Positions 51,201-54,200 of a stretch of DNA of 55,200 bases are shown here, one piece after another. The position numbers are program-made. Numbering within the stretch: the stretch's first letter is position 1; the number at the start of each line of letters is the position of its first letter. The DNA lies in the IMG/VR virus record IMGVR_UViG_2923302340_000007. One strand, written 5' to 3'. The stretch is from a virus (taxonomy: Duplodnaviria; Heunggongvirae; Uroviricota; Caudoviricetes).

Positions 51201-54200
51201 TATAAAGAATTATATAGGAGTTTGCTGTTTGTAACCTAAAAAACAATAACAAATGTTATAGTGAACTTGTTTGTTGTGCTGCTTTCACATTTTCTCAGTA
51301 ATCTTACCAGTAATATTTTTGTTGCTTTGTTGTTTCTGTTTTTTTATAAAAAAGAGGTGGTGCAGAGGAGGAAATACAGTGGATAAAAAACTAATTGCAT
51401 TTTTGTGCACACTTATAATTACTGGTTGCTCGAATGGGATCGGGGATTCACCTTCCCCTCCGGGAAAAAATGTAGAATTGGTTGGAATCCCTGGACAAGG
51501 TATTGCAGTGACTTCAAACGGTGCAACTCCAACACTTGGAGCCAACAACACTGAGTTTCCTGAAGTTTCAATAATGAGCACTGGTGGGGCGCTGCTTACT
51601 ATTTGGGCCAGACCTGTTCGTAACTGGCTTTGGGGGTATACTCCTTTTGATTCAGTAAATTTTGGTGAGAATCGGAACTGGAAGGTTGTGGATGGAAAAG
51701 ATGCCGGCACAGTGAAATTTGTTAATGTTGCCCAGGGGACTTGCATGGAGGCCTTTAAAAACGGGGTGATACATAATACCTGTGATGATAACTCGTTATC
51801 TCAGGAGTTTCAGTTACTGCCTTCTACTAATGGTAATGTGCTTATAAGAAGTAGTGCCTTGCAGACGTGTATAAGAGCAGACTATTTAAGCAGAACTATA
51901 CTGTCACCGTTTGCTTTTACAATCACCCTTGAGAAATGCCCTGGTGCAAAAGAAGAAACGCAAGAAATGCTATGGGCAATAAGTCCACCTGTCAGAGCGG
52001 CAAAACCAAATCTGATTAAGCCAGAGTTAAGACCATTCAGACCATTGCCAATTCCACCTCATGACAAACCTGATGGAATGGAGGGAGTATGAAAAAATTA
52101 TTATTCCTGTTAATGATTTTGCCGGGTATTTCTTTTGCAGATTTAAGCGATTTTAAAGTTGCAACCTGGAATTTGCAGGGGTCAAATGCACCGACAGAAA
52201 ATAAATGGAACACACATGTCCGACAACTTGTTACGGGAAGTGGTGCTGTTGATATCCTGATGGTTCAGGAGGCAGGGGCAGTACCAGCTTCTGCAACGTT
52301 GACTGAGCGAGAATTTAGCACTCCCGGTATTCCGATGAATGAGTATATCTGGAATACCGGAACCAATAGTCGTCCACAGGAGTTGTTTATATATTTCTCA
52401 CGTGTTGATGCATTCGCTAACAGAGTAAATCTTGCGATTGTTTCAAACAGAAGAGCTGATGAGGTGATTGTATTACCTCCTCCAACTGTTGTATCACGAC
52501 CGATCATCGGCATTAGAATTGGTAATGATGTTTTCTTCTCAACCCATGCATTGGCGAATCGAGGCGTGGATTCAGGAGCAATTGTAAATAGTGTTTTTGA
52601 GTTCTTCAACAGACAAACGGATCCTATAAGACAGGCCGCTAACTGGATGATTGCAGGAGATTTTAACCGTTCACCGGCTACACTATTTTCAACTCTTGAA
52701 CCAGGGATTCGTAATCATGTAAATATTATTGCTCCACCAGATCCAACGCAAGCCAGTGGTGGTGTTCTTGATTATGCGGTAGTTGGAAATTCAGTGAGCT
52801 TTGTACTTCCTCTGTTGAGGGCCTCGTTGTTATTCGGATTATTAAGAGGGCAAATTGCCTCTGATCACTTTCCAGTTGGCTTTATTCCTGGAAGAGGAGC
52901 AAGAAGATGAAAACAGTTATAGTACTTTTTGTTTTACTGCTGACAGGTTGTGCTGCTGAACCTGCAAATCAGCGTAATCTTCTTACTCAGTTTGTCGGCA
53001 ACAATGCCCCTGTAGACCCTGAACCCAGTCCAGTATTGGTTAATATCAGAAACGTTCTTACAGGGGGGATAATCCGAAATCCTGTTGGCAGTGACTTTAA
53101 TGTAAATAATTGGGTTATATCTGAAGTAAAGACTAATGATTTGGATTTGATATCGGCACCGGGAGGGCATGTTCAGATTAAAAATCCTGATGGCAATGAA
53201 TGCTTTGCTATTCTAAACGGGCAATTGGCAGTGGCTAAGCAGTGCTCTGAAAGTGACCGTAACGCATTGTTTACATTTATAACCAGTGATACTGGGGCTG
53301 TGCAAATCAAGTCAATAGGAAGCGGTCAATGCCTAGGGAATGGAGAGAGCATTACAGATTTCAGATTAAAAAAATGTGTTGATGATCTTGGGCGTCCTTT
53401 TGATACGGTGCCGCCGGGGTTACTCTGGATGCTGAATCCACCATTATCTCCGGCAATAATGTCTCCATTAACGAGCTGATCTGGAAAACGCGGCACGTTG
53501 TATGCAACTTGCCGCGGTTGGCTGGTAAACTTTTCGATAGTGCGAGTATTGAATGATTTCCAGCCGTTACCGATTTTATATAACTGCAGTGGAATTATTC
53601 AACACACAGGCAAAACGGAATAAGCTGAGAAAAAAGCGTGCTTTCCCAATCAGGGGCAAATCACGTCTGAATGACGCCTGAAAACAGGTGGTGGCCTCAA
53701 GAAGGCTTGGAATATTCTTCTTTAATGTTATGTAATTTATTGATTTTTCGTGTACGATTTTAAGGCATTTATTCCAAGAAAAATTTTTAACTCTTTGATT
53801 TTTCGACTCTGTATCATCGGTCTCGAAAACCGGAGTAGGGGCAACTCTACCGGGGGTTCAAATCCCCCTCTCTCCGCCACTTTATCAATGACTTATCTCC
53901 CGACTTCCCGCCTTGCTTTTCCTAAACAGAACAATCGTAGAATATTCTTGAAGGGTTAGATCGTCACTGTTTTCTGTTCGATACTGTGACATTCAGCACT
54001 TGATTCGCTATGGATCTGACAGGAAGGTTTCGAGCGAAAATCTGCAATTATTCAGTCGTTTTCTTATCGGTCACCATTATTCTTTTAGACATTGATCCTA
54101 CAAAGCTGCCGCAAAGTTGGTGGTGGGAACTGAAGTTGCGTAGAGAAGTGGTCAATAATTGAGCAAAAAAAAGGAACGCGGCCGTCAGATTAAAGCCGCG

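Follow-up and report, generated by a model that had tools for sequence, protein, structure and literature searches.

Attachment sites of lambdoid phages

The attP site of bacteriophage lambda has two arm-type integrase sites in the P arm and three tandem ones in the P' arm, and its IHF sites are located on either side of P2, in the intervals to P1 and to the core. An attR junction at a tRNA gene is of an ordinary, well-known kind, and serU is a standard prophage site of E. coli. In particular, prophage CP-933U of O157:H7 is presumably located at serU, and the record of the Salmonella phage ST64B remarks on the similarity of its integrase to that of CP-933U. Reports on STEC include serU among the prophage sites (PMC7067040, PMC8767318), and excision of ST64B was measured by attP qPCR (PMC12455584).

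Here we describe the attachment region of an E. coli prophage in a 55.2-kb window, that is, the whole stretch of DNA that was analysed. The comparisons given below make it very probable that positions 53700-53879 are the attR (POB') junction of a lambdoid prophage that carries CDT-I and is integrated in the serU tRNA-Ser(CGA) gene. About one in five complete E. coli genomes (1154/5426) has the respective integrase subfamily at serU, and relatives are found at serT and leuZ.

Right end of the prophage

The gene order of the prophage runs from int-xis-exo through replication, lysis, head and tail to the cargo and attR. The cargo is directly left of attR, with 339 bp between the end of cdtC and the tRNA fragment at 53818. 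The right-hand part of the window contains the following features.

51379-53479, plus strand: cdtA-cdtB-cdtC, cytolethal distending toxin type I cargo (ORFs; annotated as such in the homologous stretch of TUM14697 and IHE3034)
53818-53879, plus strand: displaced serU 3' part, anticodon arm to CCA; attR core and B' side, not a functional tRNA
53880-54549, no strand: bacterial chromosome right of attR (53880-54327 homologous to K-12 downstream of serU)
54550-55200, minus strand: zinT, chromosomal flanking gene (99.1% identical to K-12 zinT; annotated as zinT in relatives)

The preliminary description recognized the right junction as the 3' portion of a serU-like tRNA-Ser with the CGA anticodon, and the piece indeed matches positions 29-90 of E. 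coli K-12 serU in 62 of 62 nucleotides. Comparison with the unoccupied serU locus, which was proposed there as a check, demonstrated that homology to the K-12 chromosome begins exactly at 53818, corresponding to tRNA position 29. In agreement with the reported lack of a 5' half upstream of 53818, the preceding 28 nt (53790-53817) have no relation to this half, ARAGORN called no tRNA at the fragment, and Rfam gave no tRNA match at E<=1 in the region 53600-54000. The same 62-nt piece carries a tRNA-Ser pseudogene annotation in phage SerU-LTIIb (KU052038). On the chromosomal side, 54328-54549 stands in place of a 995-bp K-12 segment holding yodB, and zinT, noted earlier as lying within ~700 bp, is separated from the fragment by 670 bp. 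The exact right boundary of the CDT-I toxin prophage is now fixed.

Other candidate features at the fragment were rejected. A sub-threshold Rfam match of a plastid 3'UTR family to its minus strand probably reflects an incidental similarity to the hairpins that the T arm and variable arm form in this piece, and the small ORFs overlapping it (53737-53880 on the minus strand and 53750-53959 on the plus strand) were dismissed as coding sequences.

Left end and the joined attP

The int stop codon is at the very edge of the window, and the left junction was examined in relatives. An intact tRNA-Ser, expected from the preliminary description to lie just left of base 1 by int, was found in 67 related loci with the same integrase, where it ends 52 bp left of the position matching window base 1. 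This position of the tRNA was observed in 59 BOP' loci and in 8 contigs that encode exactly the Int of the window, their identity to the window not extending beyond int. The same distance separates an intact tRNA-Ser(CGA) from this position in TUM14697 and CFSAN004176, complete genomes that are 100% identical to the window over its first 1300 nt. The intact gene is present at the left end in all examined loci having this int beside mtfA.

The attL tRNA of the relatives is a chimera with a phage-derived 3' part, which bears the compensatory change A48G/T59C, and ARAGORN still calls it tRNA-Ser(CGA). This 48/59 dimorphism (window positions 53837 and 53848) tracks the right-hand flank in attB, attP, attL and attR, with no exception in 73 junctions and the window. 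All BOP' (59) and POP' (8) junctions have GC, and all POB' junctions (5 and the window), as well as BOB' of K-12, have AT. Since the alleles segregate with the right flank, strand exchange falls within tRNA positions 29-47.

53818-53836, no strand: strand-exchange segment, tRNA positions 29-47; anticodon stem-loop CGGT-CTCGAAA-ACCG plus GAG T (allele segregation)

The joined attP (POP'), in which the P arm, core, P' arm and int are contiguous, was identified in 8 viral contigs of IMG/VR; in the phage collection, no record covering at least 80% of the reconstructed attP was found. The two core copies are 53,931 bp apart, in accordance with the prophage length of about 53.9 kb proposed initially.

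The window by itself shows no more than a truncated tRNA, as would also be observed if the piece were not an integration duplication, but a remnant of a serU gene whose 5' half was destroyed by an unrelated insertion or deletion. However, every examined relative has an intact serU at its other prophage end, POP' junctions exist, and the segregation of alleles fits reciprocal exchange, so that an origin of the piece as a remnant is extremely improbable.

As the junctions compared here show, integration proceeds from a phage attP that carries a copy of serU positions 29-90. Its recombination with the chromosomal gene leaves an intact chimeric serU with a phage-derived 3' part at the int-proximal end (attL), and the original bacterial 3' 62 nt are displaced by 53,931 bp to the far end as a dead fragment. 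By analogy with lambda, the 7-nt anticodon loop may be the overlap region, and the CGGT and ACCG stem halves are the predicted core-type Int sites.

Candidate arm-type and IHF sites

The assignments of arm-type, core-type and IHF sites are predictions from sequence. The sites in the two arms are listed below, with distances counted from the anticodon.

4-29, plus strand: P'2 and P'3, candidate arm-type sites, two 13-bp units CTTGGAATATTTT (+111 and +124)
53700-53817, no strand: conserved attP P arm, about 116 bp (four independent haplotypes align only from AAGGCTTGGAATATTCTT rightwards)
53706-53716, plus strand: P1, candidate arm-type Int site CTTGGAATATT (-118; invariant in all P-arm haplotypes)
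53733-53745, minus strand: IHF-consensus candidate (H1-like) AATCAATAAATTA, between P1 and P2, in the invariant block ATTGATTTTTCGTGTA
53771-53778, minus strand: P2, candidate arm-type site CTTGGAAT, inverted (-53; within the invariant block CATTTATTCCAAG)
53788-53800, minus strand: IHF-consensus candidate (H2-like) AATCAAAGAGTTA, between P2 and the core (TTTGATTTT block conserved in all haplotypes)
53883-53895, plus strand: candidate IHF-consensus match TATCAATGACTTA in the bacterial B' flank, directly after the tRNA end (sequence match)

The motif CTTGGAATATT occurs exactly three times in the window (4-14, 17-27 and 53706-53716), compared with 0.03 expected occurrences, and none of 100 shuffled sequences reached three. 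The tandem pair overlapping the int 3' end was thus correctly located at 4-29 in the preliminary description, the int stop codon being at bases 1-3; the P-arm copy given there as 53706-53717 was confirmed as well, but is one base shorter. Overall, five copies of CTTGGAAT are present at -118 (direct), -53 (inverted), +101, +111 and +124. The copy at +101, the P'1 candidate, ends at window base 1 and straddles it, and the P' array consists of three copies. The inverted P2 at 53771-53778 and this third P' copy just left of the window had initially been missed.

The conserved part of the junction begins at the P1 motif. The four P-arm haplotypes compared (the window type, L098, L160 and SerU-LTIIb) are unrelated to one another left of AAGGCTTGGAATATTCTT; of the stretch 53480-53879 originally delineated as the junction, only about 53700-53817 of the part left of the tRNA piece is conserved attP. 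Both P-arm copies of the motif are invariant, while adjacent bases vary. On the other side, the interval from the tRNA end to the int stop contains a tandem repeat with a period of 10-14 in 28 of 31 Int relatives (at serU, serT and leuZ), versus 5.1% of control intervals.

The number of 13-bp tandem units varies from one to three among strains, and with one mismatch allowed the 11-mer is not rare (1.1 expected), as could be the case if the CTTGGAAT copies did not bind protein at all and were slippage products at the int 3' end together with a chance or inherited copy near attR. Nevertheless, exact copies are 100-fold above expectation, the P-arm copies stay unchanged amid varying neighbours with P1 forming the conservation edge, and ST64B and ZF40 repeat the five-site geometry with motifs of unrelated sequence, in addition to the P' repeats in the 28 relatives; it is therefore very unlikely that the copies are not protein-binding sites. 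The geometry in ST64B and ZF40, with its covarying motif, and the tandem repeats of the relatives support the earlier suggestion of related arm-type repeats at both prophage ends.

As arm-type sites, the CTTGGAAT copies (P1 direct, P2 inverted and P'1-3 in tandem) would be bound by the Int N-terminal domain, by analogy with lambda. Motif divergence and divergence of the Int N-domain are weakly related after removal of overall divergence (partial rho -0.17; 101 of 2000 permutations as low, about p=0.05), and in view of this weak signal their covariation was set aside as support for the arm sites.

The consensus WATCAANNNNTTR has only five matches in the whole window, and three of them fall in 53733-53895. 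In the phage P' arm, ATTCAATCACTTA is found where the B' flank has TATCAATGACTTA. Again as in lambda, IHF would bend the P arm at its two consensus sites. The resulting map of P1, H1, P2, H2, core and P'1-3 is useful for delimiting prophages and for the design of excision PCR.

Integrase, excisionase and int alleles

Two overlapping genes are located at the left end of the window.

1-1026, minus strand: int, lambda-type tyrosine integrase, 341 aa (ORF; Pfam Phage_integrase, Phage_int_M, SAM_3)
1026-1235, minus strand: xis-like recombination directionality factor, DUF4224, 69 aa (Pfam DUF4224 E=2e-15; PHROG excisionase families E=7e-22)

The Pfam Phage_integrase match of the window Int exceeds the cutoff, and the protein can be aligned to lambda-type Int from residue 1, with M1, R3, R5 and P14 invariant in the N-terminus, where Pfam detected no arm-DNA-binding domain. 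R195, K218, H285, H308 and Y317 align with lambda-type Int, in which respect the catalytic Tyr, His and Lys are conserved, but K288 replaces lambda R311; the same Lys is found in the integrases of ST64B and ZF40. The xis-like ORF overlaps the int start, and its DUF4224 product, by comparison with lambda, would act as an excisionase. As the int stop codon is at bases 1-3, the gene overlaps the arm-site repeats, which encode its last five codons (RKYSK). The number of 13-bp units thus alters the Int C-terminus, which is ..PSNSKCDFCH, ..PRKYSK or a 23-residue extension with one, two and three units, respectively.

The two-unit, 341-aa allele, labelled 'frameshifted' by NCBI PGAP, prevails, with about 1005 of 1151 genomes at an identity of at least 99%. 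Only this two-unit figure is used here, since short BLAST queries for the 13-bp alleles were confounded by the joining of separate pieces. The allele is also present in joined-attP contigs (L096, L110 and L163), and the routine 'frameshifted' call on this int deserves re-examination. One could speculate that the 13-bp unit is a slippage-prone switch, in which one, two or three units would yield two, three or four P' sites together with a changed Int tail and would tune integration and excision between lineages, but we consider it unlikely. If such a switch existed, about a thousand E. coli genomes would bear the 'frameshifted' pseudogene label in error. In a wider view, arm motifs are of many kinds among integrases that use the same core target (leuZ), and this diversity could keep co-resident prophages from cross-excision.

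In the head region, a 574-bp piece of the S49 head protease gene is inverted and lies between two inverted 2.7-kb copies of an IS66-family element (25875-28574 and 29149-31848). These copies disrupt the head gene, and thus the prophage may have lost its viability as a phage. Together with the PGAP label, this disruption is consistent with a true attR that is a relic, the prophage being defective and its sites no longer operating in this strain. However, the damaged head gene would stop particle formation and not excision. No damage is seen in P1, P2, the two IHF-like sites, the core, int or xis, and these match the attP-bearing contigs. The int allele itself is the one that prevails among genomes and accompanies joined attP, and it retains the three-site P' geometry of ST64B. 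Loss of function of the attachment sites in this strain is therefore possible, but rather doubtful.

Comparison with known systems

The attachment region resembles that of lambda in several respects. The int 3' end adjoins the P' arm and the xis gene overlaps the int start; two P-arm and three tandem P' arm-type candidates are present, with IHF-consensus candidates in the P1-P2 and P2-core intervals; the total length of attP is about 260 bp; and Int aligns with lambda-type Int from the MGRRR...LPPN N-terminus through the catalytic Tyr. In contrast to the intergenic gal-bio attB of lambda, the target here is a tRNA gene, and the identity block comprises 62 bp, two of them mismatched, rather than 15 bp. 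With the 3' part of the tRNA in between, the P' sites are further from the core than those of lambda. The motif in the arms is CTTGGAAT, the residue corresponding to lambda R311 is Lys, and Int is only 22-24% identical to lambda-type Int. The understanding of phage integration is unchanged by these results.

The attP of ST64B, whose integrase Sb28 is 59% identical to the window Int, also contains a tRNA-Ser(CGA) 3' part starting in the anticodon stem. Its motif copies at -116 (direct), -53 (inverted), +102, +112 and +125 are essentially at the window positions, whereas the motif itself is TGAGAAAA, the int stop lies beyond the repeats and not inside them, and the backbone and host are different. 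Similarly, ZF40, with a related integrase, has copies of TCCTAATA at -115 (direct), -53 (inverted), +138 and +150.

Among E. coli prophages at serU, phage SerU-LTIIb has the same integration site and P arm (95% identical over 53695-54327), and the order cdtC-attR-zinT recurs, at 98.4% identity, in the CDT-I prophage of IHE3034; the best right-end match among complete genomes reaches only 98.4%. The cargo of SerU-LTIIb, CP-933U and IHE3034 (LT-II, effectors or CDT-I) and much of their backbone differ, and the two IS66-family insertions distinguish the copy in the window. Finally, in Enterobacteria phage cdtI (NC_009514), cdtC and the following 100 bp are 98.6% identical up to about 53578, but only window positions 53300-53578 (query 1-279) match, and the P arm, core and int are not common to both. 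The end of this homology at about 53578 indicates another integration module for the toxin cassette of that phage; in the window, unlike in the published phage cdtI, the cassette rides on a serU-targeting module.

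Right prophage junction

The right end of the prophage carries a displaced 3′ part of a tRNA gene. The sequence at 53818-53879 (cggtctcgaaaaccggagtaggggcaactctaccgggggttcaaatccccctctctccgcca) matches bases 29-90 of E. coli K-12 serU (tRNA-Ser, anticodon CGA) without a single difference (62/62); it begins in the 5′ strand of the anticodon stem and extends to the CCA end. This agrees with the preliminary description, which had assigned it to a class II tRNA-Ser(CGA). The same description had found no matching 5′ half upstream. Indeed, the 28 bases 5′ of 53818 bear no likeness to the 5′ half of serU, the ARAGORN calls for the window are confined to two phage tRNAs, at 17872 and 18045, and an Rfam scan of 53600-54000 with the limit relaxed to E<=1 returned no tRNA. 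The comparison with an unoccupied serU locus that it had recommended places the break at the same base: homology to the K-12 chromosome begins exactly at 53818, ends at 54327 and restarts at zinT, which occupies 54550-55200 on the minus strand, has 99.1% identity to K-12 and does follow shortly after the fragment, as described. The GenBank record of phage SerU-LTIIb already lists the 62-nt piece at attR as a tRNA-Ser pseudogene.

Between serU and zinT, 222 bp without a K-12 match (54328-54549) replace a 995-bp K-12 segment containing yodB; IHE3034-type strains have the same arrangement.

Left junction and prophage length

Since the window ends at the stop codon of int (ORF 1-1026, minus strand; stop codon at bases 1-3), attL was read in relatives. 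In two complete genomes 100% identical to window 1-1300, TUM14697 and CFSAN004176, the mtfA-int interval contains an intact 90-nt tRNA-Ser whose end lies 52 bp to the left of the equivalent of base 1, just where it had been predicted. The same left position is occupied by an intact tRNA-Ser in four further complete genomes, in 47 IMG/VR loci and in eight contigs encoding exactly this 341-aa Int. The K-12 gene order zinT-yodB-serU-mtfA-asnT identifies the window as the prophage-occupied serU locus in the opposite orientation. Equivalent tRNA positions at the two ends (53818 and -113) are 53,931 bp apart, in accordance with the earlier estimate of about 53.9 kb.

Location of strand exchange

The attL tRNA differs from K-12 serU in two bases, A48G and T59C, which are compensatory because positions 48 and 59 pair in the variable arm; ARAGORN still calls it tRNA-Ser(CGA). 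We sorted junctions by their flanking sequences and then scored the 48/59 alleles.

Alleles at tRNA positions 48/59 by junction type
BOP′ (attL), 59 loci: G/C
POP′ (attP), 8 loci: G/C
POB′ (attR), 5 loci and the window: A/T
BOB′ (K-12 attB), 1 locus: A/T

In every classified junction the dimorphism goes with the right-hand flank, and strand exchange must therefore lie further left, at tRNA positions 29-47 (window 53818-53836), a stretch that corresponds to the anticodon stem-loop CGGT-CTCGAAA-ACCG. If this integrase acts like other tyrosine integrases that target tRNA genes, the 7-nt anticodon loop would be the overlap region and the stem halves the core-type sites.

Of 80 IMG/VR loci whose Int is 98-100% identical to this one, 8 contain a joined attP, in the order P arm, phage-type 3′ part of the tRNA, P′ arm, int. 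In three of these eight contigs (L096, L110, L163) the P arm is nearly identical to window 53700-53817. Such contigs represent excised circles or tandem lysogens, both of which require Int-mediated exchange at this core.

Two IMG/VR contigs (L101, L149) join a different left arm (..TTGATGATTGGAC) to the core and P′ arm of this phage; the match of this arm to the tRNA is three bases longer than in the usual P arm, and the junction may be a hybrid with a second element in tandem at serU. A fossil POB′ equal to window 53623-54157 is found in the b region of phages ev099 (L010, 670-1204), mEp332 (L007, 2501-3035) and PhiR70_1, phages whose own int and canonical attP are those of lambda. In it, the P arm of the serU phage is followed by the 62-nt tRNA piece of bacterial type and then by 278 bp of E. 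coli chromosome; this arrangement resembles the outcome of an old aberrant excision after which the int module was replaced.

Candidate arm-type and IHF sites

The 11-mer CTTGGAATATT occurs exactly three times in the window (at 4, 17 and 53706; 0.03 expected). All observations in the preliminary description are real, including the copies at 53706-53717 and in tandem at 4-29 overlapping the int 3′ end, its sole slip being the right-hand coordinate 53717, one base too long. The two 13-bp units at 4-29 are preceded by a further copy, CTTGGAATTA, with its final bases at window 1-3, so that the P′ arm has three direct copies and not two.

Four independent P-arm haplotypes (the window type, L098, L160 and phage SerU-LTIIb) can be aligned from AAGGCTTGGAATATTCTT to the right but show no relationship on its left side, which delimits a functional P arm of approximately 116 bp (about 53700-53817). 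Of the junction interval first drawn from 53480, this part is conserved, whereas 53480-53700 is a mosaic spacer after cdtC.

Invariant blocks of the P arm
Block 1: GGCTTGGAATATTCTT
Block 2: ATTGATTTTTCGTGTA
Block 3: CATTTATTCCAAG, contains the inverted motif copy
Block 4: TTTGATTTT
Block 5: GTATCA
53771-53778, minus strand: inverted motif copy CTTGGAAT (P2 candidate), within block 3

The inverted copy had not been listed beside that at 53706. The IHF consensus WATCAANNNNTTR has five matches in the window, three of them within 53733-53895: two in conserved blocks of the P arm, in the P1-P2 and P2-core intervals, and a third directly past the tRNA end.

The 96 bp following cdtC (53483-53578) are 86-89% identical to non-coding DNA of HK97, HK106 and many Stx2 phages, and mark a recombination seam between cargo and att module.

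Copy number of the 13-bp unit

The unit CTTGGAATATTTT (window 4-29) is present in one, two or three copies depending on the strain, and its number alters both the C-terminal tail of Int and the count of P′ sites.

Alleles of the 13-bp unit
One unit, JP538 (L177): Int 345 aa, ..PENIPSNSKCDFCH; PGAP, intact
Two units, window and most relatives: Int 341 aa, ..PENIPRKYSK; PGAP, frameshifted
Three units, L098 and L151: Int with a longer tail

The two-unit allele is the commonest (a 63-nt probe for it finds a match of >=99% identity in about 1005 of the 1151 complete genomes that have int), yet PGAP labels it frameshifted. Given this prevalence, the three-site P′ spacing that two units produce (10 and 13 bp, as in ST64B) and the KYSK terminus that, read directly from the sequence, is common to the Int of a 61%-identical Raoultella relative, the frameshift call probably reflects an annotation artefact rather than loss of gene function.

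Prophage contents

The gene order is the usual lambdoid one: int, xis, exonuclease, dicB/DicF, repressor and cro, replication genes; hok/sok, methyltransferase, two tRNAs, lysis, terminase, portal; head and tail genes, J, tail fibre, cdtABC and attR. The cdtC-attR-zinT arrangement is present in 403 complete genomes, including IHE3034. Published phage cdtI shares with the window only cdtC and the next 100 bp, and thus its toxin cassette lies on a different integration module.

RNA genes (Rfam hits above gathering score; tRNAs by ARAGORN)
4409-4460, minus: DicF, beside dicB
13076-13250, plus: sok antitoxin RNA, beside a hok-like gene
17872-17947, plus: tRNA-Met(CAT), tRNA-Ile according to PGAP in a relative
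18045-18121, plus: tRNA-Arg(TCT)
46496-46619, plus: STnc490 Hfq-binding sRNA, tail-fibre region

Both tRNAs are placed after the methyltransferase gene and before the lysis genes. Two inverted IS66-family (ISCro1-like) copies of 2.7 kb each, 99.96% identical (25875-28574, minus; 29149-31848, plus), enclose 574 bp of the S49 head protease gene (28575-29148) in an orientation inverted relative to the H10407-type prophage. As this gene is split in three, head formation is probably blocked; minus the two copies, the prophage would measure about 48.5 kb. The tail region has an overlapping direct repeat (47753-48179; about 238 bp, 93% identity, 189-bp offset).

Comparison with known systems

The right junction is as first described and its attR interpretation is supported; the feature is of a textbook kind at a well-known, previously described integration site: serU, serT and leuZ are all listed as STEC prophage sites (PMC7067040, PMC8767318). 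The present analysis adds the localization of the crossover, a complete map of the five arm sites together with IHF-like sites, comparative support for this map from across the family and the copy-number polymorphism of the P′ unit.

In GTDB genomes, Int relatives at least 99% identical are located at serU, those 61-65% identical at tRNA-Ser(TGA), and those 45-53% identical at tRNA-Leu(TAA). All targets in these subfamily loci (L014-L093) are class II tRNAs; leuZ-located relatives have at least six arm-motif variants with a constant core target. In 28 of 31 relatives, the interval from the tRNA end to the int stop contains a 7-mer that recurs at a spacing of 10-14 bp, versus 5.1% of control intervals; this motif varies by lineage (CTTAGAAT, TTCAGAAT, TCCGAAGA, GGGGAATA and others). 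Its divergence follows integrase divergence as a whole; the additional link to the N-terminal 58 residues of Int is weak and is therefore not relied on as support.

Arm motifs in related attP sites (positions from the first anticodon base)
This phage type (L110), Int 98-100%, tRNA-Ser(CGA): CTTGGAAT; -118 direct, -53 inverted, +101, +111, +124
ST64B, Int 59%, tRNA-Ser(CGA): TGAGAAAA; -116, -53 inverted, +102, +112, +125
ZF40, Int 50%, tRNA-Leu: TCCTAATA; -115, -53 inverted, +138, +150

Each positional pattern was matched in <=5 of 1000 shuffles. The attP sites of ST64B, whose excision has been measured experimentally (PMC12455584), and ZF40 share the geometry of this phage's attP but differ in motif sequence, a pattern expected of binding sites co-evolving with their protein.

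Int contains the integrase catalytic, central and SAM-like Pfam domains and aligns to lambda-type Int from the MGRRR..LPPN N-terminus to the catalytic Tyr. In place of the second Arg, that of the HxxR box (R311 in lambda), this Int has Lys (K288, FTFHDLKAKG), as does the whole subfamily, including ST64B and ZF40. A 69-aa ORF overlapping the int start is a DUF4224 protein matching PHROG excisionase families. With lambda attP as reference, the candidate order P1-H1-P2-H2-core-P′1-3, with int adjoining P′ and xis upstream, parallels the lambda layout.
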